IMG/VR virus record: IMGVR_UViG_3300022666_000342
Span: 1 to 57,826 of that record
Reading direction: 5' to 3' (one strand)
DNA from: a virus
Lineage: Duplodnaviria > Caudoviricetes
Length of the DNA: 57,826 bases
Shown: positions 10,055-57,826 of the stretch, piece after piece
How the letters are laid out: the number at the start of each line of letters is the position of its first letter
Position numbering within the stretch: the stretch's first letter is position 1
Position numbers and translations under genes: made by a program
The notes under the pieces: generated by a model
What the model was told of the DNA's origin: nothing
What the model saw: the letters and a program-made list of their open reading frames with translations, nothing else
Databases searched by the model: none

Positions 10055-10056
10055 TC

Positions 10057-15931: not shown

Positions 15932-15934
15932 CGC

Positions 15935-15954
15935 ATCTGCAAACGTTTGCAGAT
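15935..15954. promoter_or_regulatory. Palindrome copy 2 (ATCTGCAAACGTTTGCAGAT)
   Basis: Exact 20-bp core, 3 bp from the terminator hairpin. Confidence 0.85.
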
Positions 15955-15956
15955 AG

Positions 15957-28204: not shown

Positions 28205-28759
28205 CTACTTTGCGCCCAGCCGGCGCATCCTCTGGTAAATGACCTGGGTGGCCTGGTTTTCCACCTGACGTTCAGCATCCCGGCTTAAACCGATAAAGGG
28301 CCGGGCCGGCACAATTGAATTGCTCATCGTAAGACCGCCCGAATTCAACGTTCTGATGCGGTTCGGCGTCTTCGGATCGTCTTCGGCGCTGAGGATAATG
28401 ATGGTGCGGCCCAGGATGCGCATGAACTGCGTAACATTCCGGGGATGCTGCGGATCGGTAAAGGACCGCTTGAGGTCGCCAGTCCGCACCAGGATTGGAT
28501 GCTCGGCCCCAACGCTGAACCGAATCCCGCGCCCATCGATGCCCAACCGGCGTTCTGCCTGAGTGCGACGCGCCAGCGGCACCCAGGGCTCGCCCGAAGG
28601 TTCGCTCTCCCGCTCAAAATTAAGCGCGATCCCGCGCCGCGCCGCGTCGGCGATGATTTCGCTTTCCCGGTTGGAGAGCAGGCCGACCTCAGATAGCGAC
28701 TTCCACCAGGAATCCGAAGCTTTACTGCGAGCAACGGTAACTTTAAGCGGCATTCCCAT
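28205..28759 (-). CDS. Phage virion morphogenesis protein (Mu gpG / P2 gpS-like)
   Basis: NFERESEPSGEPWVPL...ILVRTGDLKRS...VPARPFIGLS. Confidence 0.8.
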   Translation of the reverse strand: MGMPLKVTVARSKASDSWWKSLSEVGLLSNRESEIIADAARRGIALNFERESEPSGEPWVPLARRTQAERRLGIDGRGIRFSVGAEHPILVRTGDLKRSFTDPQHPRNVTQFMRILGRTIIILSAEDDPKTPNRIRTLNSGGLTMSNSIVPARPFIGLSRDAERQVENQATQVIYQRMRRLGAK

Positions 28760-30086: not shown

Positions 30087-30095
30087 GCTCCTCCT

Positions 30096-30133
30096 AAAAA
30101 TAGCGACGCGAGGCAAAAGCCACCCCGCGCCGC
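30096..30133 (-). terminator. Terminator-like hairpin inside the late operon
   Basis: Minus strand GCGGCGCGGGG...CCTCGCGTCGC followed by TATTTTT. Confidence 0.5.
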
Positions 30134-37782: not shown

Positions 37783-38043
37783 ATGAAAAACTTAACCGCC
37801 GCCGCGATCCAGGAGAAACTGCTCGAATACGCCGAACTGGCCCTCGAAGAGGAGACCGGAGAGTACATCACCACGCAGATGACAGAGGGAGTGATGAACG
37901 ACCTAAACCTCTACAGCGACGAAGCCTCCGAAGCCATCGAAGAACTGATCGATCGGATGGCAGTAGATCTGAGCGAACGCCTTCCGCAGAGACTGCCGGC
38001 CAGCACCCTGGCCGAATACGGCCGGGAGATTAAAGCCCTTTAA
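37783..38043 (+). CDS. Small acidic array protein 4
   Basis: MKNLT start; strongly Glu/Asp-rich. Confidence 0.7.
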   Translation: MKNLTAAAIQEKLLEYAELALEEETGEYITTQMTEGVMNDLNLYSDEASEAIEELIDRMAVDLSERLPQRLPASTLAEYGREIKAL

Positions 38044-38104
38044 TCCCCTCGGGCCGGCCCCGAAAGGAGCCGGCCAGCTAAAAACAAACGAAAGGAACAG
38101 GAAA

Positions 38105-38287
38105 ATGGAACTCACAAAACAGATCGAAGAAAGAAAACGTCAGATCGCAGATTATCTCGAAAGATTGAATTCCAGAATTAACATGTATGTGGAGGATCAC
38201 GAGAACCCGACAACAAGAAACGTCGATCTACTCGGAAAACTGATCGACTCCATCGATCAAGCCATGGATCTCATGCCGCCCGATTAA
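38105..38287 (+). CDS. Small array protein 5
   Basis: MELT start; resembles the C-terminal helical half of protein 1. Confidence 0.7.
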   Translation: MELTKQIEERKRQIADYLERLNSRINMYVEDHENPTTRNVDLLGKLIDSIDQAMDLMPPD

Positions 38288-38293
38288 TTACCC

Positions 38294-38334
38294 AGAAGAA
38301 ATCCGCCTGATTGAAAATCAGGCGGGTTTCTTCT
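38294..38334. terminator. Bidirectional terminator
   Basis: AGAAGAAATCCGCCTGATT-GAA-AATCAGGCGGGTTTCTTCT. Confidence 0.8.
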
Positions 38335-38527
38335 ATAAAAGTACACCCCCATTAAAAATCCCTTTTTAAGCCCTCGACTAACGCTTGATTAACACCTTCT
38401 AATTACAATAGACCTAACCATAACCCTGGCACAACTTAACTAACGTAAAGCGATCTTATGCGTTAGAATAGTATAAAATTAACCCGCCATTTATTTTATT
38501 TCCCTTGTTTCCCAGGAGGTAAGTACC

Positions 38528-44322: not shown

Positions 44323-44332
44323 ATGATTCTCC

Positions 44333-46036
44333 TTAATTCCATTCGCTTCCGCCAGGCTTCCGAACACCGGCCTGGTCGGGCAACGGAGCCGGCCTGGGCA
44401 TTGCCAGCGCCGCCTCACAGTAAACTTCCGCCAGAGCAAAGTGGTCGGCCTTCGAGCCTTCGGTATAGCGGGCGACCATCTTCCCATCCGCGGCCTTTTC
44501 CAACACCCGCATCGGCGCTTTCATCTGCTCGTAATAATCCGGTACATCCCGAATGTTCAACGGCAGGACCCGATGCCCGTCCATCAATTCGGCGTACATC
44601 TGGTCGAAAGCCCGCGTGCGATCAATCGTCACCGTCCCCTCCTCTTGATTGGGAACGGCCATCTCCGCCTTTTTCTCACTGGCCGTCGATCCGAAGAATG
44701 CCAGCCAGACTAGCCCCCTGGGGAATTGCGCCTGCAGCTCGCGATCTTTCCGGGTTTCCGGCAATCCATCGATGACCAACGTCTTCACATTGAACCGCCG
44801 CAGCTGGCCGGCCAGCTCTTCGAACGATTGCACCGCACCGGCCCACCGAAGGGGAGCGACCTCGCTGCCTCTGGGCAACGCCCGGATCACGATGTGGAGC
44901 AAACTTCCCACATCGCAGCCAGCCACCGTCGCCTCACGCCCCACCGGTCCCAGGGCATACTCCCGCCGCACCGAATCCAGCAACGCATCATCAATCCGAC
45001 TGCCCCTGGGAGTGTAGACTTCCCCCAGATCCTGGTTGAAACACTCCCGGCGCTTGGTCTCGTCGATGACTTGCAACCCCCGCACCACATCAATGAGCTG
45101 GGTGACCGGGCTGAAAAACTTCGTCAGGTGATAACCGACAATATCTCGCCCAGGGAAACGAGGCACCCATCGCCCCGCCGCTGTCCGATCCAGCTCGGCC
45201 CCGCAACGCCGGCACGCCACAAAAGCGCGCCCTTCTTTCATCCCATGCCACGCCGCTGGCCGCTCCAGAGCATCCCACTCGATCACCACACCCTGGATGG
45301 TCATTACCTGCAGCTCGCCGCACCGCGGGCAGGGAACGAACCACTCCCGCTGATCGGAAAGCTTCCACCGTTCATCGATTCCCATGTCGGCATAGGTTGG
45401 CGTTGATATATCCAGCTCTTCGGCGAACTTACTATGCCCGAGCCGCTTCAGCGCGATGGCCGGCGCTCGCTGGTCCATCTCGTCCAGCTCATCAAAGACC
45501 AACAAGTCCACCGCCACCGACTTCAACCCCGGCGCGCGCCCGTCCGGCGAGACCTGCCCACCGCGCAGATAGAGAAACCGGTTGCGAATCCTCTTCAAGG
45601 TGACCCGATCCGCCCCCCGCCTTCTTTTTTCGCTCCCATCGCCAGGGCCATCCCCAACGATGGAGCCGAGATAGGGAGAAGCCTCCAACGCCCCGCCCAA
45701 CCGCTCGGTAGAAAAATCCGTGATGTGCCGATCCGTAGGGAAGAGGTACATCACGGTCTCTTGCCGCACGTCCGCTGCATGCAAAGCGCGCGAAACCGCA
45801 TATTCAGACGCGCCCATCTGGCTGGATTTGTAAAGCACCAGATGCCGCGCCTTTTCGCGGTACAGATCGACCAGATAGGGATGGGTCTGCAGATCGAATA
45901 GACTGTCAGGCCGCAAATAGGACCGGTTGATAATCGTCCAGGTCAGGAGATCCATCTCGCCGCCGTTCGATCGGCGAGACTGCTCCGCCTGGATCTCCGC
46001 GTAGCGGATCAGATCCTCACGCCGGCCCATCGCCAT
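44333..46036 (-). CDS. Terminase large subunit (lambda gpA-like family)
   Basis: KSSQMGASE, LLVFDELDEM, ISTPT, SDQREWFVPCPRCG, AGCDVG, DHF. Confidence 0.92.
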   Translation of the reverse strand: MAMGRREDLIRYAEIQAEQSRRSNGGEMDLLTWTIINRSYLRPDSLFDLQTHPYLVDLYREKARHLVLYKSSQMGASEYAVSRALHAADVRQETVMYLFPTDRHITDFSTERLGGALEASPYLGSIVGDGPGDGSEKRRRGADRVTLKRIRNRFLYLRGGQVSPDGRAPGLKSVAVDLLVFDELDEMDQRAPAIALKRLGHSKFAEELDISTPTYADMGIDERWKLSDQREWFVPCPRCGELQVMTIQGVVIEWDALERPAAWHGMKEGRAFVACRRCGAELDRTAAGRWVPRFPGRDIVGYHLTKFFSPVTQLIDVVRGLQVIDETKRRECFNQDLGEVYTPRGSRIDDALLDSVRREYALGPVGREATVAGCDVGSLLHIVIRALPRGSEVAPLRWAGAVQSFEELAGQLRRFNVKTLVIDGLPETRKDRELQAQFPRGLVWLAFFGSTASEKKAEMAVPNQEEGTVTIDRTRAFDQMYAELMDGHRVLPLNIRDVPDYYEQMKAPMRVLEKAADGKMVARYTEGSKADHFALAEVYCEAALAMPRPAPLPDQAGVRKPGGSEWN

Positions 46037-46661
46037 CCCCACCTGGCTTCCCGAAGGCCAGCAGCAGATTGCGTTTCATTTGTTCCAGCTCTTCGTCGGT
46101 TCGTTTCTCTAGGTCGTTGCGCTGCCCCGGAGCCACCGATAGATCGACCGCCAACTTCTCTTCGCCCAGTTCGCGCCGCATTTCCTCTGTAACCATTTTG
46201 ATCCCGGCTGTGATCTCCGCCCATGTCGCCGCAGCCGGATCGATCTGCTGCAACGCCTGAAGAAGCTTCGATCGGTAAGCTGTCAGGGTTTTGATCCGCA
46301 GATCTTTCTCCTTGATCTGCAGATCGATGAAAGCATCCAGAATCTTCTCCTGCAGGAGCAGATCAAAAGCCTGGGACCGCTCCACCCACAAGAAGTTCTT
46401 AGACCACGACGACAGCGTGCTCCAGCTATCGGTCGGAGCAGTCTGGCCCAACCGGAGCCGATCCTGATAGGACGCCAACAGAATGCGCAGCGACCGCCGG
46501 CGAGTTTTCCGCAGGGAGCCAGGCTTTAACCCCTCGGTTCCCTCCGGGTACGCCATCATGGCGTAATCCCGCAGGGCCGAATTGGCGAGCACCGACTCGC
46601 CATGACACAAGGCGATCGGATCGGCCTGCTCCTGGTCCCACAGGAACTTTTTCCGGCTCAT
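46017..46661 (-). CDS. Probable terminase small subunit
   Basis: Directly upstream of TerL; GES..A...RSL...WS..F.WVER.QAFD; C-terminal TDEELEQ. Confidence 0.65.
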   Translation of the reverse strand: MSRKKFLWDQEQADPIALCHGESVLANSALRDYAMMAYPEGTEGLKPGSLRKTRRRSLRILLASYQDRLRLGQTAPTDSWSTLSSWSKNFLWVERSQAFDLLLQEKILDAFIDLQIKEKDLRIKTLTAYRSKLLQALQQIDPAAATWAEITAGIKMVTEEMRRELGEEKLAVDLSVAPGQRNDLEKRTDEELEQMKRNLLLAFGKPGGDGDGPA

Positions 46662-47368
46662 TTTCTCTTCGCCCCGCCCCGGCGCTTCTCCAGGAGATAC
46701 CCAATGCGGGCAGCCGCCGAGCACATCATGCGGCCCCGATACTGTTGTCCGGTCTCGGGATCATCCAGGTCACAGTTGTCGCCGCAGATGAACCCGACCA
46801 CGTTCTCGCCGTCCAGGACAGGGACCACCATCATGGTTACCACGCCCTGTTCGCCTAACATCCCTTTCGAGATACTGTCTGGGCTCGTGGGAACGTCGTA
46901 CCAGATAATGAGCCGATCGCATCCGGGCCGGCAGTCGCATAACAAACGCGACGCCCCTGCAGGAAGCTCTTCTTCCCACAGGGGCGCTAAAAGATCGATC
47001 ATCACGCTGATCGGGATATTTTGCATATCCCGCGCATGGTACGAAACCCCTGGCCGGCACACCTCGTGCGTCCGACTCAGCTTCCACACGGGGTTCCTGG
47101 CGCTGAAGAAATTCCCATTGTGGAATTGCGTCAGATGCACCCGATCGAAACCGGCTCTGACCCGGATCTCGACCAGCACGCTATAGATGCTCCGGTCAAG
47201 CTCGACATCTCTGGCGGTAAACACATGATCCCCGCCAAAAAGCCGATCAAACGCCCTTTGCAAATCCCCCTGGAGACGCTCCCGCAGGAGCGCCACCAGG
47301 GCGATGATCGCAAACGCCAATATTAATCCGACAGTCTGAAAAATCCCCTCAACTGCGGATTGCGCCAT
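46658..47368 (-). CDS. Single-TM protein with GAF-like domain (T4 gpT-like holin candidate)
   Basis: N-terminal TM; DRVHLTQFHNG...HEVC.PGVS...VVGFICGD GAF-like pattern; start uncertain (47368 or 47398). Confidence 0.55.
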   Translation of the reverse strand: MAQSAVEGIFQTVGLILAFAIIALVALLRERLQGDLQRAFDRLFGGDHVFTARDVELDRSIYSVLVEIRVRAGFDRVHLTQFHNGNFFSARNPVWKLSRTHEVCRPGVSYHARDMQNIPISVMIDLLAPLWEEELPAGASRLLCDCRPGCDRLIIWYDVPTSPDSISKGMLGEQGVVTMMVVPVLDGENVVGFICGDNCDLDDPETGQQYRGRMMCSAAARIGYLLEKRRGGAKRK

Positions 47369-47903
47369 TCTCACCGCCCGATCCAACATCTTTGACATCT
47401 CCCTGGGGACCCGGTCCGCTGACCAGAAATCCAGCCACCGCTGCGGCCCCCGCCTCGCTTTTTTCTTTCTGTTCCTGGAGATAAGCCTGAACCGGCTTAA
47501 TCCCCAGAAAATAGATCCCCTGGGATGTCGCCCAGACCATCAGTCCCTTGACCAAACGCTGCCAGTGGGGTTCCAAAGCAGAGATGACATCGGGAGGAAC
47601 ATACTGCAGGAGCAGACCGGCCGCAAAGGGGAGAACTACCACCAATCCAAACACTACCCACCCTTTAACCTGGGGAGCAAGGTCCTGGAACCACTTACTC
47701 TTCTCGCCCAGGAAAACGACGATGAGAGCAGCCAGGGCCACATCGGCAATCCCCTGGATCACAGACTGAAGGGATGGAATCTGAACCCCTCCATCCCCGC
47801 CCTGACCCAGGCCGGCGGCCGCCGCAGGAGCAGCGAAGATCAGCGCAGCCAGAACGGCCAACGCTACCGAAAACCGAACTTTGGAAAACAAATTGGTTAA
47901 CAT
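47349..47903 (-). CDS. Multi-TM membrane protein (holin-like)
   Basis: Signal/TM segments; first gene after the leader terminator; GGAGG RBS. Confidence 0.5.
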   Translation of the reverse strand: MLTNLFSKVRFSVALAVLAALIFAAPAAAAGLGQGGDGGVQIPSLQSVIQGIADVALAALIVVFLGEKSKWFQDLAPQVKGWVVFGLVVVLPFAAGLLLQYVPPDVISALEPHWQRLVKGLMVWATSQGIYFLGIKPVQAYLQEQKEKSEAGAAAVAGFLVSGPGPQGDVKDVGSGGENGAIRS

Positions 47904-47923
47904 ACGATCCTCCACTTGAATTT

Positions 47924-47965
47924 AAAATAGAAACCGGGACAGCTCGATTGCTCGAACTGCCCCGG
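47924..47965 (-). terminator. Leader terminator in front of the lysis/packaging operon
   Basis: Minus strand CCGGGGCAGTTCGA-GCAA-TCGAGCTGTCCCGG followed by TTTCTATTTT. Confidence 0.7.
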
Positions 47966-48012
47966 GATCTTTGCTCCTGACAGGCGGTCAGAAAACCAAC
48001 TATAGGGTAGGA

Positions 48013-48237
48013 TTATTGTCTTGCAGCTTTACGGGTCCGCCGATTAAGCTGGAGAGACTCTTCCTTTACCACGTATGCATATTCTCCACCGCTAATCTCA
48101 ATGATAATTTTACCGAAACCAGACCGGGCTATAATTTCACGCCCGACCATAAGGACTGTTTTGATCATCGCCTCCTCCGACATCGCTTCGTCGTTTACTG
48201 CAGGTTGGATTTTCGCCGGAGCAGCCACAGATGCCAT
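48013..48237 (-). CDS. Small YezD/DUF2292-like protein
   Basis: GFGKIIIEISGG...VVKEES pattern; AAGGAGG RBS; upstream TTGACA-16-TAAATT (48303-48276). Confidence 0.5.
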   Translation of the reverse strand: MASVAAPAKIQPAVNDEAMSEEAMIKTVLMVGREIIARSGFGKIIIEISGGEYAYVVKEESLQLNRRTRKAARQ

Positions 48238-48345
48238 AACCCCCTCCTTAACTAATATTTTACCATCTAAAGGGAAATTTAACGCCATGGTCTATTCTGT
48301 CAACATGAAGGCACTACAAATCGGTTACAATTCAGTAACAAATTA

Positions 48346-48372
48346 GAAAAAGGCCCGGATCGCTCCGGGCCC
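48346..48372 (-). terminator. Intrinsic terminator after ssb
   Basis: GGCCCGGA-GCGA-TCCGGGCC followed by TTTTT on the minus strand. Confidence 0.75.
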
Positions 48373-48386
48373 TGAGAAAATACCCC

Positions 48387-48833
48387 TTAAAACGGGATGT
48401 TGTCCTCCTCGTCTGGCGGAGGACCTCCGGCCCCAGGCCGGCGCCCGCCGGCCATTCCCACCGGCGCGCCCACGTCACCATCCCCGGCCGACCCGCTCAG
48501 GAATTTCACGTTCTCCGCTGTCAGCTCAAACGACGCCCGCGGCTTCCCGTCCTCACCGGTCCACACTCGCGGCCCGCCGGTCTCCTTGTCCGGCTGGAGC
48601 CGGCCCTCCACCAACACCTTGCTTCCCTTTTTCAGGTATTGGTTGACCGTCTCGGCCTGCCGCCGCCAGCAGGTCACCCGAAACCAAATCACTTCCTCCC
48701 CCTGGGAGCCGTCCGGGTTGTTCCACTTCCGATTGGTAGCCACGCTGAAGGTGGTGACCGGAGCGCCGTCCGGCGTGTAGCGCATTTCCGGGTCTCTGCC
48801 CAGGTTTCCGATGATGATGACTTTGTGATACAT
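48387..48833 (-). CDS. ssb: Single-stranded DNA-binding protein
   Basis: KVIIIGNLGRDPEMRYTP...FSVATNR...VEGRL...acidic tail EEDNIPF. Confidence 0.97.
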   Translation of the reverse strand: MYHKVIIIGNLGRDPEMRYTPDGAPVTTFSVATNRKWNNPDGSQGEEVIWFRVTCWRRQAETVNQYLKKGSKVLVEGRLQPDKETGGPRVWTGEDGKPRASFELTAENVKFLSGSAGDGDVGAPVGMAGGRRPGAGGPPPDEEDNIPF

Positions 48834-48863
48834 ATCAAATTCCCTTTCGTGTTTTTAAGTTTA

Positions 48864-49655
48864 TTACCTCACAATCCCCAGCGACCGCGCCGACCCGGAA
48901 ACCAGATCGACGTAGGTCGCATACACGTCCAGATCCCGACTCACCAGGAGCCGAGACAGGTACGACGCCGCCCAGGTACTCATGGCCGTGTTGACCATGA
49001 GCGACTGCTGCTCCATCACCGCCAGATCGGCGCAGCTCAAAGGATGCTCCGCTTCCTCCTGAACCTCCAGCAACTCAGGATGCTGGATCGACGGAAGAGG
49101 GATCTCGTTGCACATTCCCATCAATACCATCGGTTTTTGAACGCTGCTGTTCCCGAGCAAGACCTGTCCAGAATCCCGATGATTTCCACAATCGAGCCAC
49201 CATACAGAACTATTTTTGTGCGCCTCATGGATCGCCGTCCGCCCTGACGCGCCGTCGACACACCCAATAACGATTTTTAAAATCCTCGGGCCAAATTCCG
49301 ACGTCGCTTCTCTGAAAAAAGCTTCCTGCGTTTGATCGTTAAAACTCTGGATCGCAAATTCTATATTCAGGCCGAAAGCCAGACTATACCGACGCGCCAG
49401 GGCCTCAGCCTTCGGCATCCCCACCTCAGCCGGGCAAAAATTCTGCCGGCCAAGATTCTTCCTCTCAACAGAGTCATAATCGACAAAACCGACCTTCCCC
49501 GTCATCCCTTTTCGATCCAAAAGGTGATAAGCCAACCGGGCAATGTGAAGCGCCATAAAGGACCCCGTTCCCCCACACCCCACCAGCATGATGGCGTACC
49601 CCTTTATCTCTCCCAACTCGACGCGCGCCCGCTTTTCAATTTTTATCTGCTCCAT
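48864..49655 (-). CDS. ThiF/E1-like adenylyltransferase (PRTRC ThiF family)
   Basis: VGCGGTGS, D.D.VE.KNLGRQNF, IGCVD, WLDCGN, LSCA (candidate catalytic Cys), QSLMVN. Confidence 0.9.
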   Translation of the reverse strand: MEQIKIEKRARVELGEIKGYAIMLVGCGGTGSFMALHIARLAYHLLDRKGMTGKVGFVDYDSVERKNLGRQNFCPAEVGMPKAEALARRYSLAFGLNIEFAIQSFNDQTQEAFFREATSEFGPRILKIVIGCVDGASGRTAIHEAHKNSSVWWLDCGNHRDSGQVLLGNSSVQKPMVLMGMCNEIPLPSIQHPELLEVQEEAEHPLSCADLAVMEQQSLMVNTAMSTWAASYLSRLLVSRDLDVYATYVDLVSGSARSLGIVR

Positions 49656-50275
49656 GAAAATTCCCCCATGTCACGCATCTCCCCTATTCCCCCAAATAAA
49701 ACCGTCGCCGGAAGATCGACAAAATCACCGTAAATTCCCAACCGGACCCGGATCTCAGGCTGCCGCTCGAAAATCAAACCCATAACCGCGTAAAAGCGAA
49801 ACCCCAACTCATCTTTATTGTCGGTACCGCTAAAAAACGCTCGATAATTGCAATGTGAATGCAGGTCGCAAAACGTCTCAGGACCATCGCCCCCTAAATA
49901 TTGGAGCGAGTCAGCGGTCGCCGTCTGAACCGGCCGCGTCAACCGCACCATGCCGTTTTGAAACGAATAATGGTATCCGGCCTCAACCGGCTTAACAGCC
50001 GCCTGCCGGCGAGCGTCTTCCAGAGTAGTCAGGAGCAACCGCTCAGGGATTCTCCCGTGTCGGATTTTCACCCAGGGCCGGATCTCGGGCAGCCCCGCCA
50101 CGCGGACGCGGGAGATCGGAACGCACACATCAAAGTGGGAATTCTCTGCCCGCTTGAACACCCCATTCCCGGCCAAAACATAACCGTAAGCCTTCCCCTC
50201 CAGGGCAGGGACCTCGTCGCCCATGATTCCGTAACATACGGGATTGAACTTCATCGCACTAATAACTGCTTCCAT
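49643..50275 (-). CDS. JAB/MPN metalloprotease (PRTRC protein A-like)
   Basis: YVLAGNGVF N-terminus; E...DLHSH...AFFSGTD.KDE JAMM motif. Confidence 0.9.
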   Translation of the reverse strand: MEAVISAMKFNPVCYGIMGDEVPALEGKAYGYVLAGNGVFKRAENSHFDVCVPISRVRVAGLPEIRPWVKIRHGRIPERLLLTTLEDARRQAAVKPVEAGYHYSFQNGMVRLTRPVQTATADSLQYLGGDGPETFCDLHSHCNYRAFFSGTDNKDELGFRFYAVMGLIFERQPEIRVRLGIYGDFVDLPATVLFGGIGEMRDMGEFSWSR

Positions 50276-50960
50276 TCAGAACCTCCCCCAAAGTGAGACC
50301 GGCCTCAATGAGATCATTCATGGGGTAAGCAGACACCCCCTCAATCTCCCGCCACAATTCGGTAACCCTGGAATTATGGCGCTTGCTTTTTTGATTCCCC
50401 AGATCGTTATTGAAATAGCTCTCAAAAAATTCCTTAATGGCCCCTGAAATGCCGTCCAGAGACGGAGCCGGGAAATCGGCCGTTCCCTGACACACATGAC
50501 CGTCGTCGTATATGTTGGGATAAGGAGCCTTAAAAAGCCTCGATCCCATATCCACCGGCCGTTGCTTGACCGCAAAGACCATAAAAGTTTTGGCCGTGAT
50601 AAACAAGAGCGGCGGACACGGAATCTTCCCCGACCAGCCCCCGTCCATCCTCACCTTCCGCTGGGAAGGTGGAAGATAGACAGCCGCTTCTTCGCGTCCA
50701 TTGGCCCGGCGGTAAAAAATTGTATTTTTAGGGAGCAAAGGAGTCTCGATTAAAATGCCGCCAAAAACGGCAGCGAGATCCTCAGGAGAAACCTCAAACG
50801 TCGCATAAGCTTGCCCGCCCTCGTTGTGTTTCGTCAAAATGATCGACTCCGAATAAACCCGTATCTCAGCCCGTAAGACCTGCGTGTCAGGCTTCTCCGC
50901 CGGCACCGAGAAACCGCCCAGGGCCATCTCAAACACGTTGGAAGCATGAACTCTAAGCAC
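50259..50960 (-). CDS. Prokaryotic E2 family D protein (PRTRC protein B-like)
   Basis: PPLLF...VFAVK.RP...LFKAPYPNIYDDGHVCQG...FFESYFN; GTG start after GAGGAGG. Confidence 0.85.
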   Translation of the reverse strand: MLRVHASNVFEMALGGFSVPAEKPDTQVLRAEIRVYSESIILTKHNEGGQAYATFEVSPEDLAAVFGGILIETPLLPKNTIFYRRANGREEAAVYLPPSQRKVRMDGGWSGKIPCPPLLFITAKTFMVFAVKQRPVDMGSRLFKAPYPNIYDDGHVCQGTADFPAPSLDGISGAIKEFFESYFNNDLGNQKSKRHNSRVTELWREIEGVSAYPMNDLIEAGLTLGEVLNGSSY

Positions 50961-51855
50961 GATATTCCTCCTCGACTGAAGCAAAGAACTTCGACAGAAG
51001 CTGCCTGGAATTTTCAGTGGATTCGTACCAGTTTGTGAAACGATAAAACCGCTCAACATCATCCCGAATCCGAGCGTAAAAATCCGCATACCGCCTGATC
51101 ACATCATAATCCACCACCATCTCAGTATCATCGTAGCCACAGTCTACGCGCCACGCCGAAGGAGTGTCTATAAACGGATTATTCGTGTTCCCCAGAACGC
51201 ACTGGTATAGAAAGTCAACGCCTGAAAAAATGCCCGTCTCTTTTCTGAACCTATCGAGAGTCCAGTCCTCGTTCTCAAAGAAAAAGAAACCCGGATCGTC
51301 GTCATCGGAATCTTCCCCCAGCAGACCGGCTTCCGAAAGCAGCTCGGAATACAGAATAGCGATATCTTCCTCGCCGCTGTAATCTTCAATCGGAATAGAA
51401 GCCCGACCTGAAACCGCGTCCATGCACGCGACTAAAACCCGCTCGTATTCTTCCAATTCGTCGAAAGATGCTCCCCCACGCGGAACGCCAAACGAGACGA
51501 ATGGAATTCCATACATTAAAACATCCGGCTCGGACCCATATTCAAAGTCCCAGGTATCAAATATCCCATCCAACATCGCCAGATCCACCGGGAAGAGTTC
51601 TGCGTCAACTTTATCGACGAACTCCGCTTGAACCTCAACAAAACTCAGATCTCCCCGAAGATTCTCGCCGAATAGCAGTTTGTGAATTCGGCGCAGCCGA
51701 TACGGCCCCGTAGTCCAGGAAAGCAATAAATCTCGGGCCGGCCTGACGCACTGCAACCCCGAAGGGAGCACATCAAAGAGCCGGTTATACAGCTCGTAAT
51801 AACTCAAAATCCCTGAGGAACTTCCCCCGCTGGTATCGGTTTTAAAGATTGACAT
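50953..51855 (-). CDS. Acidic hypothetical protein within the Ubl cassette
   Basis: Coupled to the E2 gene; D/E-rich; occupies the slot of the helical accessory gene of PRTRC loci. Confidence 0.65.
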   Translation of the reverse strand: MSIFKTDTSGGSSSGILSYYELYNRLFDVLPSGLQCVRPARDLLLSWTTGPYRLRRIHKLLFGENLRGDLSFVEVQAEFVDKVDAELFPVDLAMLDGIFDTWDFEYGSEPDVLMYGIPFVSFGVPRGGASFDELEEYERVLVACMDAVSGRASIPIEDYSGEEDIAILYSELLSEAGLLGEDSDDDDPGFFFFENEDWTLDRFRKETGIFSGVDFLYQCVLGNTNNPFIDTPSAWRVDCGYDDTEMVVDYDVIRRYADFYARIRDDVERFYRFTNWYESTENSRQLLSKFFASVEEEYRA

Positions 51856-52067
51856 CTCGCATTGATTCCTTCCATCCTTTTGACATGCCCGGAAATTTCA
51901 GCGGCCGCCTTCTCCAGGTCGCGTTCGAGCCTTTGATTAAATTCCCGATCCTCCGGGTAAACTGGATAAAACTCTTCCAACTGAAACAACAGCTCAACGC
52001 CCAGAAGGCGGAGCGGCTGTAAACCAGCCAGCCGCTCCACTACGCCCGCCACATCTATGCCGGCCAC
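51804..52067 (-). CDS. Hypothetical protein
   Basis: GTG start right after the Ubl gene stop; fills the operon gap. Confidence 0.45.
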   Translation of the reverse strand: MAGIDVAGVVERLAGLQPLRLLGVELLFQLEEFYPVYPEDREFNQRLERDLEKAAAEISGHVKRMEGINARCQSLKPIPAGEVPQGF

Positions 52068-52068
52068 C

Positions 52069-52626
52069 TCACCGGCCCTCGCCTGCAGGAGCCAGTTCCG
52101 GCGCCTGGACCTGCACACACACCCGGCGCGCCGCTCCCGGCCCGGCGATCGAGTCCAGCGCCTCAATTGCCTTCCAGATGTGCGCCGGGTACATCCCGGA
52201 GTAAACCTCGCCGGTCTCCAGGCCAGCGTCATGGTCCTTGAAGTAGTCCTGAAGAATTGCCACCAACGCCCCCATGGCATTGGCCTTCAGAATCGACCGG
52301 TAAGCCTGAGCCTGCATCATCAGGCCCAGCACAACGTCGGTATGCAGATCGATGTGCGTGTCTCCAGCCCGTTGGACATGCTCGACCCGAGTCTGGAGCA
52401 GCAGGAATTCCTCATCGCTGGGGATGGAGGAAAACGCCCCCTTGGTCCCCGCTTTCTTCGCAAACACGACCCGCTCAGTGCCGTCCGGCATTACCTTCGT
52501 CTCAATGCTGGCGTTTGCCAATTCCGGGAAATACCCGGCGAACTGCGCTCGCACCTCTTCCTTCGACATAGAAGGATCGTGGTCTTCGTATTCTTTATCT
52601 CCGTAAACAAAAATCCGCTTTGCCAT
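52069..52626 (-). CDS. Ubiquitin-like protein (PRTRC protein C-like) with C-terminal extension
   Basis: KRIFVYG...D.DPSMS.EEVR..FA.YFPELANA.I...VF.KKAGTKG (aa 1-63), then ~120 extra aa. Confidence 0.85.
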   Translation of the reverse strand: MAKRIFVYGDKEYEDHDPSMSKEEVRAQFAGYFPELANASIETKVMPDGTERVVFAKKAGTKGAFSSIPSDEEFLLLQTRVEHVQRAGDTHIDLHTDVVLGLMMQAQAYRSILKANAMGALVAILQDYFKDHDAGLETGEVYSGMYPAHIWKAIEALDSIAGPGAARRVCVQVQAPELAPAGEGR

Positions 52627-52629
52627 TTT

Positions 52630-54084
52630 TTACTCCTTCCCGCCGAAGAATTCATTCCGAGCAACGTCCACCAGGGACGCCAGATCAGCATACCGGCCGC
52701 TGTGCCAGACAGAAGGGCCAGCCCCATCCAGGCCGACCGTCACGATTACGCGCCGGTTGTCCAGGTCCGGCCCTTCCTGAACCCGAATCATAATGACGGC
52801 AGTCTTCGATTTATCAGGAGCAGCCTCAACCGGCTTCGCCACCGGAACCGGAGCCGGCATCGGATTCACCGCCGGAGTTGAAACTGGCTTAACCGCTGTC
52901 GCCGGAACGGGAACGCGAGAAACAACGGGATTCACTGCCGGAGCCGGAGCATGCTGCGCCTGGGGAGCCGGCCGGACCGGAGTCACGTACTGAACCACCG
53001 GAGCCCGCGGAGCCGGAACCTCTTCCTCATAGCCGACCTCATCATCTTCGGATTCTTCCCCGGTCTCTTCGCCGATCTCCTCAATCTCGCCGACCTCTTC
53101 GGCTTCTTCGTCAGGATCGAACGAAGACACCGCCGGCCGACCACCGACAACTTTGCCGCCCACCCGAATCACCGGTTCATCCTGCATCAAATCGGTGACC
53201 TGAGCGGAAATGGAAGCCGTCCGATCAGCGAAGCGCGGCGCCCAGGCCGACGCCCCGCCCAGTTGGGCCGGAGCCACAACAGGAGCAGCCTCGGCCAGGA
53301 GCAAAGCCGGTTCGGGTTCTGCTTCGCGGCCAATGTTGGCCGTCGTCATCGTGTAAACTTTCCCGCCCCGCTCCACCAGCCGTTCGCCAGGGTCCCCGTC
53401 CGGGTACATCTCCCGGCGAATCTTCGCCACAAACGGCCCGGAGACATCCGCAACCTCGGCAACCCTTCGATCGCTCCAGCCGCGCCATTCCTCATCCGCC
53501 AGAAGCATCCGCACCGCCTTGCGCTTATCGTCATCCGTCCGGCGAATCCCATGCCGGCCGTTCGCCCCCACGGAATACAGCAACGCCTCCCGCTTTCCGC
53601 CCGTATGGATCTCGGCCCATATCATCTCAATGCCGGCCTGCCGCGCGGCTTCCACCCGGTGGAAGCCATCGGCCAACCAGTAATGCTCGCCGTCGCTGAA
53701 AACCACAACCGGAGGAAAGTTTGCCCCCTCAGCCATTTTGTCGGCATACTCGCCGACCGTGAAAAGATCCATCTGAACGCGGGTCTGAAGATCCGGGTCC
53801 GAGACGATCATGTCCAACGCCAGCATCCGATTGTTGTTGCTCACCATCTCCCGCTGCTCCTTCTTTTGGTTGGCGGCGATCGCGCCGCTCACAATCTGAA
53901 ACGTGTTGTTTACCGGGAGAGAATCCCGGCCAAGAATCGAACTGGCCGTCCGATGGGAGCGACCGGAGCCGCCCCCACCGTGAGACAGCGCACCCAGGAC
54001 CCGCGGCTTGGGGGGATGGCAACGCGGGCACTTCCACCCAGAAAACCGAAGATTGCAATCCTTGCAGGTCCTGAATGTAGCCAT
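52630..54084 (-). CDS. ParB-like protein (ParB N-domain + HTH) with N-terminal Zn finger and Pro/Glu-rich linker
   Basis: FPPVVVF..G..YWLADGFHRVEAA; N.RHG..RT.DDKR; WSDRRVAEVADVS..FV; possible internal start at 53847. Confidence 0.85.
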   Translation of the reverse strand: MATFRTCKDCNLRFSGWKCPRCHPPKPRVLGALSHGGGGSGRSHRTASSILGRDSLPVNNTFQIVSGAIAANQKKEQREMVSNNNRMLALDMIVSDPDLQTRVQMDLFTVGEYADKMAEGANFPPVVVFSDGEHYWLADGFHRVEAARQAGIEMIWAEIHTGGKREALLYSVGANGRHGIRRTDDDKRKAVRMLLADEEWRGWSDRRVAEVADVSGPFVAKIRREMYPDGDPGERLVERGGKVYTMTTANIGREAEPEPALLLAEAAPVVAPAQLGGASAWAPRFADRTASISAQVTDLMQDEPVIRVGGKVVGGRPAVSSFDPDEEAEEVGEIEEIGEETGEESEDDEVGYEEEVPAPRAPVVQYVTPVRPAPQAQHAPAPAVNPVVSRVPVPATAVKPVSTPAVNPMPAPVPVAKPVEAAPDKSKTAVIMIRVQEGPDLDNRRVIVTVGLDGAGPSVWHSGRYADLASLVDVARNEFFGGKE

Positions 54085-54086
54085 AG

Positions 54087-54986
54087 TTACCTCTCTGACC
54101 CGTAGAACAACCGAATCCGAGAAAGCGAAGCCTCACACAGCTTGGAGAGATTTTCTCCGTCGCTCTTCCCGTTGATGTAGTCAATGGAACCGTTAGCAAG
54201 ACCTCCAACAATACGAACCAAAGCTTTCTCCAGCGATTCCCCATTACCCTGCGCCAACAGAGCCCCCATACTCCCGGCCTCGAAATTACGCGCGTTCAGC
54301 TGCAAAACGGTCTCGCGCGATTTTTGATAGAAATCCAGGACAGCTTCTTTTGTGGACTGACCAGCGGCCCCGCCGATGATTTCATGGATGGCGTTCAACT
54401 CCGCCTCCCGCCGGGAAGCCTCCAATTGCCATTGCCCATCCTTCTGGGCCGGCGTCGCCGGGGCCACAGCCGCCGCGACTCGCTCACCAAAGTCGGGAAT
54501 GTCGAAGTCTTCTTCGATTTTTGTCCCATCCAGGGAGACGGAAACATCAGGAACAGCATCGCCGACATCGAAGACATCCCCGCCCATCTGGTCGCAATCC
54601 GTCTCCTGGTCCGCAGCTTCCTGGAAAATCCAGGGAGACAACGACTGCACCTGACACTCCCGGATCGCTGACCGCAGCGCTGTCGCCTCCATCTCCAGGC
54701 CGGCAATGCGAGCGTCCACAACGCCCAAGAGATTCTTGACTCTGCCGATGTATTGCAACCGGCCAGCATAATCAGAGTCATCATTGAGCAAGGCCGCGAT
54801 CGCCACGGCCCGCTGCTGCTCGTTGCTTCCCAAGGCCTTGAAATCGACGCCGCGCAGCAAGTCAGTCTCACGCTTTTTCAGGCTTGCCTCATCATGCCGT
54901 AGGATCTCCATTTTTTCGGCTCGCTCTATGTACAAAGCGGTCAATTCGCCCGCCACCTCAATCAGACGTTGCCGGTAAGTTCCCAT
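54087..54986 (-). CDS. Hypothetical coiled-coil protein
   Basis: GGAGG RBS; LGSNEQQRA helical N-terminus. Confidence 0.65.
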   Translation of the reverse strand: MGTYRQRLIEVAGELTALYIERAEKMEILRHDEASLKKRETDLLRGVDFKALGSNEQQRAVAIAALLNDDSDYAGRLQYIGRVKNLLGVVDARIAGLEMEATALRSAIRECQVQSLSPWIFQEAADQETDCDQMGGDVFDVGDAVPDVSVSLDGTKIEEDFDIPDFGERVAAAVAPATPAQKDGQWQLEASRREAELNAIHEIIGGAAGQSTKEAVLDFYQKSRETVLQLNARNFEAGSMGALLAQGNGESLEKALVRIVGGLANGSIDYINGKSDGENLSKLCEASLSRIRLFYGSER

Positions 54987-55191
54987 GATTCCCTCCCGTA
55001 ATTTCTTTGAGCTTTGCAACGGCATCGACCAGGGAGTCGATGTCAACCAGGACAACCCCCATCTGCCCCCCGCGAGCGCCGAACACAGAAACGCTCACGG
55101 ATTTATTACCTACCTGCGCCATCAAGAGCCGGCGCACCCCGCTCCCGTTGGAAATCTCCACCGCCCGCCCCTTCGTTACTTTCGCTTCCAT
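54958..55191 (-). CDS. Hypothetical protein
   Basis: AAGGTG RBS; in operon. Confidence 0.55.
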   Translation of the reverse strand: MEAKVTKGRAVEISNGSGVRRLLMAQVGNKSVSVSVFGARGGQMGVVLVDIDSLVDAVAKLKEITGGNHGNLPATSD

Positions 55192-55245
55192 TTTTTCACC
55201 TTTACCCAGGCTGCCGGCGAGCCGTCCTGCCGGCAGCCCTAAAAA

Positions 55246-56736
55246 CTACAGCGTCAGCTGCTCCGGCTGGGCAGGCGGTTCTACCGACGCCAGCGGAGCC
55301 TGAGCGGCGATCTCGTCCCAGATCCCCACGATTTCCTTGGCGGCCATAGCGTCTACGCTATAATTTCCGCCCGAGTCCTTGACCGGCTTCAGCCAGTCAT
55401 TCAGCGCGGCCAGCACCGCGCCCGCGCCAGCATCGCGCAGGCTTTCCTGCCCGAAGAGGAAAAGCTGGACCGCATGTCTCTTTTCCTTTGATTGCCCATC
55501 GCCCGCGAAGGGCATCTCCAGCAGCATTGCTACGATCCCGTACTGCTTATCGGTCGGAGCTTTCCCGGCGTAATGCGCCGCGCGCGTCGCCAACCGATCC
55601 TTTACCACAAACGGCGCATACGGTCGGCCCGGAGCCGCCGGAGCGGAAGCCGGATTGCTGGCCGGCGCTGCCGGCCGAGAAGGAGCCGCCGGAGCGGAGA
55701 GATACTCCGGCTCGGGCATGCCGGCATATGGATCTTCGCCAGGATTAACCGGCTCGCCATCCAGAACCTGCCCCTCGCTCGGATCTTCCTGCGCCGCCCG
55801 TTGCCCGGCATGGGGCGGAGGAAGCGGAGCATCCTCTTCCCAATCAGACACGCCCTCCGAAAAATCATCATCGTAATAAGAAGGATCTGCCGGCCCGGAG
55901 ATAGCAAGAGCCCCGCCAGGACTGGCAATCAAGGCCCCCTTAGTAGCCCGCAGGTACATCTGCCGAACTACTTCCTGCGTCGGTTCAAGCTGAACGAACC
56001 AGCGCTCTCCATGCGTGAAAATCCCACCGCGAGACTTATCCTCATAGATCGTTGATTCCAGGACAAGACGCAGCGTCATCGGAATCCACGAGATCTTCCC
56101 GAAAATCGCGTATACCTGTTTCAACGTGTAATCGATGCTGTCATAATTGCGACCGCTTCCGGTCGCCAGCTGATAATATCCCAGCCGCAGCAGGTCTTTG
56201 TGTTGCGGATCGGCCACCGTGAACTTTAGCAACGCCGATGCCTTACAGGCCCGGCAGTGAGGATACAAATCACGCCGGCTACCGCTGCATTTCACCCGGT
56301 CACCCGGCTTAAAGGATTCCTCTCCCAGCGTGAAAGAACGAACCGCAAGACCACCCTCTACCAGCCGCCCACCCGGAGCGTTATGCACCGTGATCGCCCC
56401 GGTTTTTTCATTCCGCTCCGTCCGAAAGGAGCTGGCGGCGGAGATGAACTCCCCGTCGCCGGAACAGACGTTAATGCCCCCGGCCCAAACGCTGTACGAA
56501 GCCCTGAAAGCCCGCTCCACTTCATCAAAAACAAAAATAACCGGCAACGAACGGCAGCAATCGCCATAGGCTGCCAGCAAAGCCGGAGCATCGGTTAGGA
56601 CGAAATGATCGTCCGGTACCGGAAACTTCACCTTCCGGCCATCATCCCGGATTTTTTCTTCCGTATGGCCCAGCCGAACCACACCCAGCCGGCTCAGCCG
56701 TTTAACCTGTCTTGCATCACGATCTTTGAGCGGCAT
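55246..56736 (-). CDS. Gp3-like / recombination directionality factor-like protein
   Basis: RLGVVRLG...DHF...L.V.F...CSGDGE...C...C...L.F...G.YQL.TGS pattern; GGGAGG RBS. Confidence 0.7.
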   Translation of the reverse strand: MPLKDRDARQVKRLSRLGVVRLGHTEEKIRDDGRKVKFPVPDDHFVLTDAPALLAAYGDCCRSLPVIFVFDEVERAFRASYSVWAGGINVCSGDGEFISAASSFRTERNEKTGAITVHNAPGGRLVEGGLAVRSFTLGEESFKPGDRVKCSGSRRDLYPHCRACKASALLKFTVADPQHKDLLRLGYYQLATGSGRNYDSIDYTLKQVYAIFGKISWIPMTLRLVLESTIYEDKSRGGIFTHGERWFVQLEPTQEVVRQMYLRATKGALIASPGGALAISGPADPSYYDDDFSEGVSDWEEDAPLPPPHAGQRAAQEDPSEGQVLDGEPVNPGEDPYAGMPEPEYLSAPAAPSRPAAPASNPASAPAAPGRPYAPFVVKDRLATRAAHYAGKAPTDKQYGIVAMLLEMPFAGDGQSKEKRHAVQLFLFGQESLRDAGAGAVLAALNDWLKPVKDSGGNYSVDAMAAKEIVGIWDEIAAQAPLASVEPPAQPEQLTL

Positions 56737-56738
56737 GA

Positions 56739-57077
56739 CTAACCTCCCCATAAAAGAGCAGAAAGGTCAACTTTAGAATCGACGGGCCGGTCCTCCGGCT
56801 CGTCGATCCCAAACAAATCCCGATACTCTTGAGGCATGTGAGCCATAGCAAGAGCGGTATCAACTTCCTCCTGCCGCAGCGTGTCCAGAGAAACAACGGT
56901 CCGAGTCACTCCACAGCCGCAGCGCGGGTACATAAACCGCAATTGTCCATTCCAGGACCCCACTGGAACCTTTCCGCACTCGGTGCAACGATATCCAATC
57001 TGTAAAACCCGGTACGAGAGGGACGCACCGGTGCTCAACAGGACGCCTCGCTCGTTAAAGCTAACGATCTTGGGCAT
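56739..57077 (-). CDS. Zn-finger hypothetical protein
   Basis: CTEC...CGC; GAGGAGG RBS. Confidence 0.6.
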   Translation of the reverse strand: MPKIVSFNERGVLLSTGASLSYRVLQIGYRCTECGKVPVGSWNGQLRFMYPRCGCGVTRTVVSLDTLRQEEVDTALAMAHMPQEYRDLFGIDEPEDRPVDSKVDLSALLWGG

Positions 57078-57288
57078 TTTGCACCTCCTCAACTGGAGCC
57101 GGAGCCAACTCGACCACTTTGGTCTCGCCGCAGTAGCACTTCGGGAAGTGTCGCTTCCCGTCGAAATTCACAGAGGGAGCCAGACCGCAGACCGGGCAAA
57201 CATACCGCTCGCTCAGGTCTTTGTACGTAACCCACTCGCCGGTTTCCAGACGAACGTGAGTGCTGATGGCAAGCTTAATGTTCGTCAT
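57061..57288 (-). CDS. Zn-finger hypothetical protein, similar to the adjacent gene
   Basis: Y.CPVCG..P...PKCYCG parallels YRCTECG..P...PRCGCG. Confidence 0.6.
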   Translation of the reverse strand: MTNIKLAISTHVRLETGEWVTYKDLSERYVCPVCGLAPSVNFDGKRHFPKCYCGETKVVELAPAPVEEVQNAQDR

Positions 57289-57569
57289 CGCCGCACATCC
57301 ATCAACCGCAGTAGCCCGCGCGCAACCTCAACTTGGCGCTGCAGCGCGCGATAATTTGTACCGGTAGAATGGTCGTACCAATCCACCAACGCCCGCGCGA
57401 CCGCTTCCATCTTCGCCTGCTCATCGGCCGTCATCAGCTCGACGCCGATCTGGTCGGAGAGCCGGTCGTATTCATTCACCAGGACCTGGAGCCGGGCGAC
57501 TTCGGCCTGGAGCGCCTGAATCTGTACATCTTTCTCATCCAGTTGTTGAAGGGAGGTAACGTCGATCAT
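57285..57569 (-). CDS. Hypothetical coiled-coil protein
   Basis: ATGA coupling at both ends. Confidence 0.6.
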   Translation of the reverse strand: MIDVTSLQQLDEKDVQIQALQAEVARLQVLVNEYDRLSDQIGVELMTADEQAKMEAVARALVDWYDHSTGTNYRALQRQVEVARGLLRLMDVRR

Positions 57570-57826
57570 TCCTCACCTCCAAAATCCCCAGCATCGCCCG
57601 CATCCTGGTCAGCTGCATGTTGGATTTCGTCGATAATCCGATCCACATCGACCCGGGCGAGCGGCTCGATCGCCGCCGACTGCAGGCCGGAGAGCACAAC
57701 AAACAAATCGCCCTGGCGACGGCCGATAATGGCCGTCACCAGGGCGACGATCCCGCTCTCGTCCAGCCCGATCAAGGCATGGGCGAGATCTTCAGTCCGA
57801 ACCGGGATCAAGATAGCGCTGTTCAT
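57566..57826 (-). CDS. Hypothetical protein
   Basis: ORF starting at the window edge; coupled to the next gene. Confidence 0.55.
   Translation of the reverse strand: MNSAILIPVRTEDLAHALIGLDESGIVALVTAIIGRRQGDLFVVLSGLQSAAIEPLARVDVDRIIDEIQHAADQDAGDAGDFGGEE

Follow-up and report, generated by a model that had tools for sequence, protein, structure and literature searches.

We analysed a 57,826-nucleotide stretch of DNA from a tailed phage (positions 1 to 57,826 of IMG/VR record IMGVR_UViG_3300022666_000342; hereafter the window), in which an earlier note had proposed a complete ubiquitin-like (Ubl) conjugation cassette with genes for an E1, an E2, a JAB peptidase, a Ubl protein and a ParB-like protein. 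The list of open reading frames (ORFs) with their translations showed that every gene named there lies on the minus strand at the place given for it, and all the motifs quoted (DGFHR, AGTKG, PNIYDDGHVC, HSH...S..D, GCGGTG and SC) are present in the translations. The genes belong to a co-oriented minus-strand run from 56751 to 48350 in which neighbours are separated by short gaps or overlap, and the cassette itself is composed as follows, from 5' to 3'.

52630-54084, minus strand: ParB-like protein, 484 residues; phrog_1033 'ParB-like partition protein' at 1.1e-16 over residues 69-221.
52069-52626, minus strand: Ubl precursor, 185 residues; PF14454 Prok_Ub at 4.2e-11 and TIGR03738 PRTRC_C at 1.4e-11.
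51804-52067, minus strand: Y, accessory protein of 87 residues; frame and GTG start taken from comparison with relatives.
50953-51855, minus strand: X, acidic all-alpha protein of 300 residues, occupying the PRTRC_F position of canonical cassettes.
50259-50927, minus strand: E2-like protein, 222 residues from M55; PF14460 Prok-E2_D at 4.5e-22 and TIGR03737 PRTRC_B at 1.2e-19.
49643-50275, minus strand: JAB/JAMM metallopeptidase of PRTRC_A type, 210 residues; TIGR03735 at 1.2e-15 and PF14464 Prok-JAB at 2.1e-4.
48864-49655, minus strand: ThiF-type E1, 263 residues; TIGR03736 PRTRC_ThiF at 2.5e-42 and Pfam ThiF at 7.4e-16.

Two of these gene models differ from the ORF list. The listed E2 ORF (276 residues) overlaps X by 137 nucleotides; Met55 lies 26 nucleotides past the X stop codon and gives a protein of 222 residues, near the 228 positions of the PRTRC_B model, and is the likely start. 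As for the two accessory ORFs reported earlier, both exist (X and Y), but Y is 51804-52067 and not the listed 158-residue ORF 51804-52280, which we rejected as a second accessory gene since its first half reads the Ubl tail out of frame. Two relatives from the same bacterial family, L011 and L012, encode at this place a conserved protein of about 85 residues ending ...P.GF. The GTG start of Y at 52067 is 1 nucleotide past the Ubl stop codon, and the last 52 nucleotides of Y overlap X, an overlap that likewise measures 52 nucleotides in L012 and 55 in L011.

A hidden Markov model (HMM) search returned four NCBIfam PRTRC models as the best matches of the core proteins, in agreement with the PRTRC-type gene set proposed at the outset. 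The E1 scored 144.9 bits against a PRTRC_ThiF cut-off of 144.75 as an ORF, a borderline result because the six-frame search gave 144.4 bits and thus fell below it; its secondary NCBIfam matches were ThiF and MoeB. The E2, JAB and Ubl proteins each matched a single NCBIfam family: the E2 scored 70.6 bits against PRTRC_B (cut-off 131.45), while the JAB protein scored 57.5 bits against PRTRC_A (cut-off 101.8) and 21.6 bits against PF14464 (cut-off 25), and the Ubl scored 44.4 bits against PRTRC_C (cut-off 45.95). Judged by these profile scores, the JAB, E2 and Ubl proteins are homologous to PRTRC_A, PRTRC_B and PRTRC_C but fall outside the equivalog boundaries. A survey of related phages found Ubl, E2, JAB and E1 in this order on one strand in 72 of the 80 viral loci kept, the other 8 being cut by a contig end. 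With HMM E-values from 1e-11 to 1e-42 and a gene order recurring to this extent, the cassette is beyond chance.

Conservation was counted in a set of 84 loci, made up of 80 IMG/VR loci collected via ThiF alignment, Ralstonia phage Dina, Burkholderia phage BgVeeders33 and the genomes of two relatives, by aligning the best ORF per component per locus. The E1 consists of one adenylation domain, in which G26-C-G-G-x-G31, D134 and a candidate catalytic Cys208 can be recognised. Its residues G26, G28, G29, G31, D59, D61, N67, R70, K82 and D134 are identical in all 84 loci and C208 is identical in 83 of them; among proteins of solved structure, human UBA5 is the closest to it in sequence (1.4e-8 over residues 15-161). 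The JAB motif residues are E98, H139-S-H141, S149 and D152, among which H139, H141, S149 and D152 are kept in 83/83 related loci. In 44 loci the Glu upstream of these corresponds to E98; it lies one position earlier in the other subtype, to which Dina and BgVeeders33 belong. About 110 residues precede the JAMM motifs, and the protein has a weak match to DUF2016 (E 0.011). In the E2, a candidate catalytic Cys146 lies within ...YPNIYDDGHVCQG..., and P135, N138 and C146 are each kept in 81 of 82 related loci. The motif of this family, ...PN(I/V)xxxGx(I/V)C, has no His before PN and has the same Asn-to-Cys spacing as the classical E2 HPN...C motif. Iyer, Burroughs and Aravind (2006; PMC1779556), in whose scheme, as their passages on it describe it, this operon is type 6d, noted the absence of that His in the 6d E2-like protein. 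Taken together, the predicted catalytic residues are all present in the window and show little or no variation across 82-84 related loci; the motifs that had been called apparently intact hold every conserved residue of these sets.

An AlphaFold2 model of the E2, built from a 59-row alignment, reached a predicted local distance difference test score (pLDDT) of 91.3. An exhaustive structure search with this model returned proteins of the ubiquitin-conjugating (UBC) or ubiquitin E2 variant (UEV) fold, either E2 or UEV, in all of its top 19 rows (Z 3.5-4.6), with UbcH10 as the best match (Z 4.6, root-mean-square deviation 3.9 Å, 104 residues aligned), a value under the tool's caution level. The predicted structure is thus consistent with an E2 fold, though weakly so. 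Profile searches of JAB and E2 against PDB sequences gave 0 matches at E<=1; a word-based search for close relatives of the E2 returned the window's own protein only, and a single-protein E2 scan of viral contigs returned none.

The Ubl gene encodes more than its beta-grasp domain, which covers residues 1-63 and ends in ...AGTKG: behind it stands a tail of 122 residues. All 76 related Ubl genes share K62 and G63, and the domain ends in ...G(T/R/S)KG in all 76 loci, with T replacing the first G in two. Past the KG, 7 of the 76 ORFs stop exactly, 4 continue for 1-5 residues and 65 have tails of 33-157 residues. GC content by codon position in the tail of the window's Ubl is 0.71/0.42/0.76, lowest at position 2 as in the neighbouring genes, and the 122 residues were therefore read as coding; they have no relative in the 84 loci nor in a word-based search of a large protein collection. 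Of the 25 related loci with Y, 12 have the Y homologue as an in-frame C-terminal extension of the Ubl. Tails varying freely after an invariant Lys-Gly are expected if a peptidase removes them, and this is the pattern that would be expected of a precursor trimmed at the Gly63-type glycine, with the JAB protein encoded downstream as the obvious candidate for tail removal. The Bil and Bub Ubls are likewise described as matured by trimming or cleavage in the relevant passages of their reports (PMC10557695, PMC11601596).

The accessory proteins match no canonical PRTRC component. X has 38 distant relatives of similar length with conserved motifs, none of which (0/38) matches any NCBIfam model, and no NCBIfam model was matched by X or Y. 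The AlphaFold2 model of X (pLDDT 83.6, predicted template modelling score 0.78) is all helical and found no convincing match against the PDB (Foldseek best E 0.46, VIA-align best Z 3.5) and no usable match in the ESM Atlas; a word-based search for close relatives returned only the window's own protein. We rejected X as a PRTRC_F protein, as BLASTP gave nothing against the F proteins of Dina and BgVeeders33 and the hhalign probability was about 0.1%. Y has a Pro-containing tail and a terminal Gly-Phe and is mostly unconserved elsewhere; its homologues in 25 related loci end in GF (23) or CF (2), and in their alignment F87 is invariant while G86 and P79 are kept at >=90%. The tail (...P.P....P.GF) was tried as a clamp-binding pentapeptide and does not fit the consensus QL[SD]LF. 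Prediction of an X-Y complex scored 0.01 against a mark of 0.32, which is no evidence either way.

The ParB-like protein consists of an N-terminal CxxC...CxxC, a ParB/Srx-type domain with DGFHR, a Pro/Ala/Glu-rich linker and a C-terminal domain of about 50 residues. It has no Pfam ParB match and no NCBIfam ParB match even at E<=10, whereas the upstream genes of relatives match Pfam HTH_ParB or ParB_N. Its similarity to the ParB proteins of L011 (6e-9) and L012 (1e-6) is confined to the last 90-100 residues; the N-terminal DNA-binding parts do not align. By these comparisons the ParB-like head is of another type or subtype than the PRTRC-type ParB, and the modularity, with a shared C-terminus and differing N-terminal heads, suggests that the C-terminal domain is the part belonging to the cassette. 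This domain was also tried as PRTRC_E and rejected (hhalign probability 0.2%); the shared predicted beta-beta-beta-alpha order was seen by eye only. A second ParB-type domain occurs in the same phage, at the N-terminus of a DNA methyltransferase at 28743-30116 on the minus strand (N6_N4_Mtase, phrog_498), whose N-terminal part matches ParB-like PHROGs.

Relatives of the cassette are common. A tblastn search with the E1 hit 12 phage records, including Dina, BgVeeders33 and large Bacillus, Vibrio and Salmonella phages. An E1 relative is encoded in 146 IMG/VR contigs, found with two seed patterns only, and a relative is also encoded at 241 species-representative genome loci. The closest named genome records are from Anaerolineae and other Chloroflexota, followed by Cyanobacteria and Acidobacteriota. 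These cassettes fall into two subtypes, the canonical one with PRTRC_E (34 loci, including Dina and BgVeeders33) and the type seen in the window. X is present in 24 of the 80 viral loci, Y in 23 and the ParB-like protein, detected with a profile from this analysis, in 19. The RefSeq annotation of Dina (NC_055026) already names PRTRC proteins E, C, F, B and A together with ThiF. Two sources from 2026 also place the cassette or one of its proteins in prophages: a preprint describes recurrent variation in a prophage PRTRC protein B, and a paper, in its passage on the Burkholderia gladioli prophage AB2, calls the cassette a partitioning cassette with unstudied function (PMC13366799). Set beside the 146 IMG/VR contigs, these records mean that the phage location, which had been presented as unusual, is not so. 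On this sequence evidence the cassette is real but not a first, being a divergent version of a catalogued cassette that is common in phages.

The element carrying it is a prophage. The window corresponds to positions 8273-66098 of an 87,871-base contig in a genome of 7.97 Mb in 136 contigs. Its structural genes encode a gpA-type large terminase (TerL), a Mu-like portal, a head protease, a major capsid protein and a 2099-residue tape measure, and it also encodes DnaB, RusA, an FtsK-like ATPase and a DUF2637 protein. Upstream of the window lie a STAND/BTAD-TPR gene and a tRNA-Glu gene; downstream lie a large serine recombinase (L006:1364-2899), four tRNAs, nusG, rplK and rplA. The last 14 bases of the tRNA-Glu(TTC) gene at contig 7597-7670 (L005) recur at 69166-69179 (L006:3068-3081), 170 nucleotides beyond the recombinase gene; chance alone would give about 0.003 such matches between the stretches compared. 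The element is a temperate siphovirus-like prophage, and from the repeat its length is about 61.5 kb and its site of insertion seems to be the 3' end of the tRNA-Glu gene, beside the host nusG-rplK-rplA genes. A 61,894-base contig from another assembler, in a public run that may be the source of this DNA, covers 44000-57826 with no difference and no gap, spans both cassette and terminase and ends near both points of the 14-bp repeat, so that no sign was seen of a chimeric assembly with a plasmid or an integrative and conjugative element. Low-depth pieces of the cassette and terminase regions were found in a second run; both runs come from one study and are not independent sampling.

Four further features belong to the same run, two on either side of the cassette.

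55246-56751, minus strand: Gp3-like protein, 501 residues; PF18897 Gp3-like at 8.4e-20; upstream in the run.
54087-55055, minus strand: 322-residue protein with no family assigned, between the Gp3-like and ParB-like genes.
48387-48833, minus strand: ssb, last gene of the run; PF00436 at 8.4e-33, TIGR00621 at 2.1e-37 and phrog_44 at 1.4e-39.
48350-48373, minus strand: terminator-like hairpin with a 10-bp stem, 7 G-C pairs and a T-rich tail, from a consensus scan only.

The ssb gene starts 30 nucleotides past the ThiF stop codon, and the hairpin stands just 3' of it. The earlier note had described an operon with the cassette between the Gp3-like gene and ssb. The single co-oriented run bears this out, but the link to ssb does not hold elsewhere: SSB was found in 4 of the 80 viral loci (within the 8 kb fetched, with one query), and adjacency to ssb is therefore not a conserved feature. 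The Gp3-like gene had been taken for a recombination gene. Pfam describes PF18897 as 'recombination directionality factor-like', which fits the serine recombinase at the prophage end better than a part in homologous recombination, and the protein is probably the excision (directionality) factor of that recombinase. A Gp3-like homologue was detectable in one related locus only, L012. The C-terminus of the protein (55246-55275), ...PEQLTL, has a loose likeness to the clamp-binding pentapeptide. The 322-residue protein has no Pfam, NCBIfam, PHROG or PADLOC match and no homologue in the 84 related loci. No PRTRC match at E<=10 was returned from NCBIfam for the Gp3-like, 322-residue, ParB-like and X proteins or for the Ubl tail; NCBIfam presumably holds models for PRTRC D, E, F and ParB, of which only E and F were confirmed, as annotation names.

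In 19 related loci the neighbours include ParB, AAA_24 and AAA_25 ATPases, DnaB, proteins with a DnaA_N domain, one beta-clamp, integrases and terminases, a neighbourhood that is the replication/lysogeny side of temperate phage genomes; the cassette of the window most likely also lies in an early operon on that side of the prophage. The beta-clamp gene (DNA polymerase III) directly follows ThiF in that 1 of the 19 loci scanned (L022:8825-9973). In the related viral contig L024, the cassette is closely followed, at L024:5101-6774, by two components of a diversity-generating retroelement, a bAvd-like gene and a reverse transcriptase; the window itself showed no reverse transcriptase.

Several features away from the cassette were also recorded. 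A type I restriction-modification-like N6 methylase (with an HSDR_N_2 domain) and a specificity subunit are encoded on the plus strand at 12361-15871, in a stretch (10001-16000) with 41-47% GC against about 57-60% elsewhere, which resembles an island acquired by the prophage; a comparable methylase/specificity pair lies 3' of the cassette in the viral locus L021. A second low-GC stretch (38001-40000, 42%) contains a 648-residue ORF with no Pfam match (38528-40474, plus strand), on the strand opposite to the flanking structural genes. Outside the prophage, the upstream host flank carries a gene with SpvB, TcdB_toxin_midN and FG-GAP domains (L005:3-2561) and the STAND-type regulator, of 1356 residues with BTAD, AAA_16 and TPR domains (L005:3454-7524).

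We consider it probable, at roughly 0.6, that this intact, divergent PRTRC or 'operon type 6d' cassette is a working Ubl-conjugation cascade in the early operon of a prophage. Observed are the genes and the order in which they stand, motifs that are intact, a prophage setting and conservation across many phages, and it is because the four core families, the matching gene order, the near-invariant catalytic residues and the KG precursor pattern coincide that we favour this reading. It is favoured also because the 19 top structure rows of the E2 are E2 or UEV proteins and UBA5, the nearest solved relative of the E1, is itself a minimal E1 of one domain, and because the genes form a tight co-oriented operon with a terminator-like hairpin in a prophage setting. 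Every biochemical step, and the biological role, is what we infer. JAB would cut the 185-residue Ubl precursor after Gly63 to expose a ...Thr-Lys-Gly end and free the 122-residue tail, upon which the small UBA5-like E1 would adenylate Gly63 and take the Ubl onto Cys208 as a thioester. From the E1 the Ubl would pass to Cys146 of the E2-like protein, for conjugation to lysines of one or more targets, and the JAB peptidase may also be able to reverse the conjugation. X, Y and the ParB C-terminal domain would act as lineage-specific partners, whether as specificity factors, as DNA tethers or as targets themselves.

Several points weigh against a working cascade. JAB, E2 and Ubl all score under the curated NCBIfam cut-offs, and the fold match of the E2 is weak, since beyond the best Z of 4.6 Foldseek with the same model gave no match at E<=0.001. 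The Ubl ends in a single C-terminal Gly (KG) and not in GG, as is also the case in sulfur-carrier proteins. No target, E3 or substrate-recognition domain was identifiable, and the neighbours other than ParB vary between phages, so that the context says little about function. PRTRC/6d cassettes were predicted in 2006 (PMC1779556, in its account of type 6d), and our literature search found, among the matches listed, no biochemical evidence for any PRTRC cassette and no tested function of PRTRC/6d cassettes.

A more specific version of the cascade can be imagined, and we hold it as a whole to be doubtful. The cassette would be a DNA-tethered tagging machine of the phage, in which a swappable ParB head brings the conserved C-terminal domain, and together with it the Ubl, E1 and E2, onto the DNA of the phage soon after induction or infection. 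Cleavage by JAB would both activate the Ubl and release the hypervariable tail or the Y protein, and the Ubl would be put on DNA-bound host proteins such as defence nucleases or nucleoid proteins, or on replication proteins of the phage. If true, it would represent a virus-side ubiquitination system in counter-defence or replication control.

Among the other explanations, a prophage-borne anti-phage defence, with Bil-like tagging of proteins of other incoming phages as a form of superinfection exclusion, appears unlikely. The bacterial E1/E2/JAB systems of known role, type II cyclic-oligonucleotide-based anti-phage signalling systems (CBASS) and Bil, are defence systems in the relevant parts of their descriptions (PMC10557695, PMC11601596), prophages often carry defence genes, as the restriction-modification-like pair at 12361-15871 illustrates, and ThiF gives weak partial matches to CBASS E1-E2 models (best 5.1e-9). 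However, the ParB-like, Ubl, Y, X, E2 and JAB proteins have no PADLOC match, although whether PADLOC 2.0 holds Bil models was left unchecked, and the single-domain E1 of 263 residues is neither a multidomain Bil E1 nor a Cap2 fusion. The cassette moreover sits inside an early operon between the putative excision factor, ParB and ssb and not in a separate island, and superinfection exclusion is less obvious for the ThiF relatives in Bacillus, Vibrio and Salmonella phages of 180-234 kb, which we took as lytic; an E2 match (one query) was found in two of these, both Bacillus phages, only.

That the cassette is instead an accessory of DNA partition or maintenance that regulates a ParB-DNA complex, with the ParB-like protein for example as its sole substrate, we regard as improbable. 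Here and in many relatives the cassette is directly preceded by a gene of the ParB family; our profile matched 19 of 80 viral loci, and Pfam ParB_N or HTH_ParB was matched in 8 of the 19 loci scanned. The C-terminal domain alone is common to the ParB proteins of related cassettes, hinting at a cassette-specific part, and 'partitioning cassette' is the label used in the AB2 passage of PMC13366799. Against this, no ParB was detectable with the profile in 61 of the 80 viral loci, canonical cassettes carry PRTRC_E instead (34 loci), and the phage is integrated by a serine recombinase with no ParA seen in the window.

In the CysO/Mec+ and QbsE/QbsD pairs, a JAB protein exposes the Gly of a sulfur carrier. 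A similar small-molecule pathway here, in which ThiF would make a thiocarboxylate of the Ubl Gly (for nucleic-acid or cofactor modification, for example) and JAB just expose that Gly, would agree with the use of ThiF, beta-grasp and JAB proteins by sulfur-transfer pathways as treated by Iyer et al. (2006, PMC1779556, in its part on these pathways), with the single Gly of the mature Ubl and with the secondary ThiF and MoeB matches of the E1, but it is very improbable given an E2-like protein with PN...C and a near-invariant Cys in 81 of 82 loci and no rhodanese, cysteine desulfurase or sulfur-acceptor enzyme in the operon or in 150 neighbour ORFs of 19 loci.

The window, as read from sequence, thus holds a real, intact and well-placed variant of the known PRTRC kind. 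New here are an intact, well-defined example in a clean prophage context, evidence for a Ubl precursor in which a variable tail follows the KG, and three markers of a variant centred on Chloroflexota and Cyanobacteria, namely the accessory families X and Y and the ParB C-terminal domain. The example by itself does not reveal the function of the cassette, and cultured phages carry the cassette too. Characterised bacterial E1/E2/JAB systems (type II CBASS and Bil) defend against phages, and a related kit is widespread on the phage side, where it would show whether phages use Ubl tagging offensively or for their own replication.

Comparison with known systems places the cassette more precisely. 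Type II CBASS has an E1-E2 fusion (Cap2, with Cap3) beside a CD-NTase, while E1 and E2 are separate genes here. The PADLOC E1-E2 models gave partial E1-domain matches of ThiF only, over residues 17-111, and Pfam and NCBIfam scans revealed no nucleotidyltransferase in the operon. The E1 resembles UBA5 of the UBA5-UFM1 system as a short E1 with a single adenylation domain, but the alignment is limited to the Rossmann part, and the E2 and Ubl partners of the two systems have no sequence relationship. UBA5 works as a homodimer. As in Bub (6E/DUF6527), whose Ubl is reported, in the part of the paper concerned, to be made as a fusion and cleaved to function (PMC11601596), the Ubl here would be matured from a longer product, and the structure search with the E2 returned a Bub complex chain as one of its weak matches (Z 3.4); by contrast, the peptidase type, domain organisation and gene families differ. 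Bil (BilABCD) shares the set of Ubl, E2, JAB peptidase and E1, and Ubl residues after a conserved Gly are trimmed according to the relevant section of its report (PMC10557695), but its E1 is multidomain (an inactive and an active adenylation domain and a Cys domain), and Bil is borne by bacteria against phages whereas this cassette is borne by a phage.

The closest likeness is to operon type 6d and to the PRTRC cassettes of Dina and BgVeeders33. Type 6d, as described in the corresponding passages of PMC1779556, has a Ubl with a C-terminal glycine, a JAB protein, an E1 without rhodanese, an E2-like protein without the classical His before PN and a fast-evolving alpha-helical protein, in the place of which X is found here, although no homology of X to other 6d helical proteins was detected. 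The 6d JAB has an extra N-terminal alpha+beta domain, in which position the JAB here has its pre-JAMM segment of about 110 residues. Unlike in 6d, the 'absolutely conserved histidine C-terminal to the cysteine' of those passages is not among the columns conserved at >=90% in our 59-sequence E2 alignment, and they list bacterial genomes, not phages. With the PRTRC cassettes of the two phages, the one in the window shares the core of Ubl, E2-like protein, JAB and single-domain E1 with the same catalytic residues, the order Ubl, helical protein, E2, JAB, E1 (C-F-B-A-ThiF in Dina), a Ubl ending in KG and then a tail, and carriage by tailed phages or a mobile element. By contrast, identity to the Dina proteins is just 27-37% over partial alignments, and no PRTRC_E, PRTRC_F or PRTRC-type ParB is detectable in the window cassette, where X, Y and a ParB-like protein of another subtype stand in their place.

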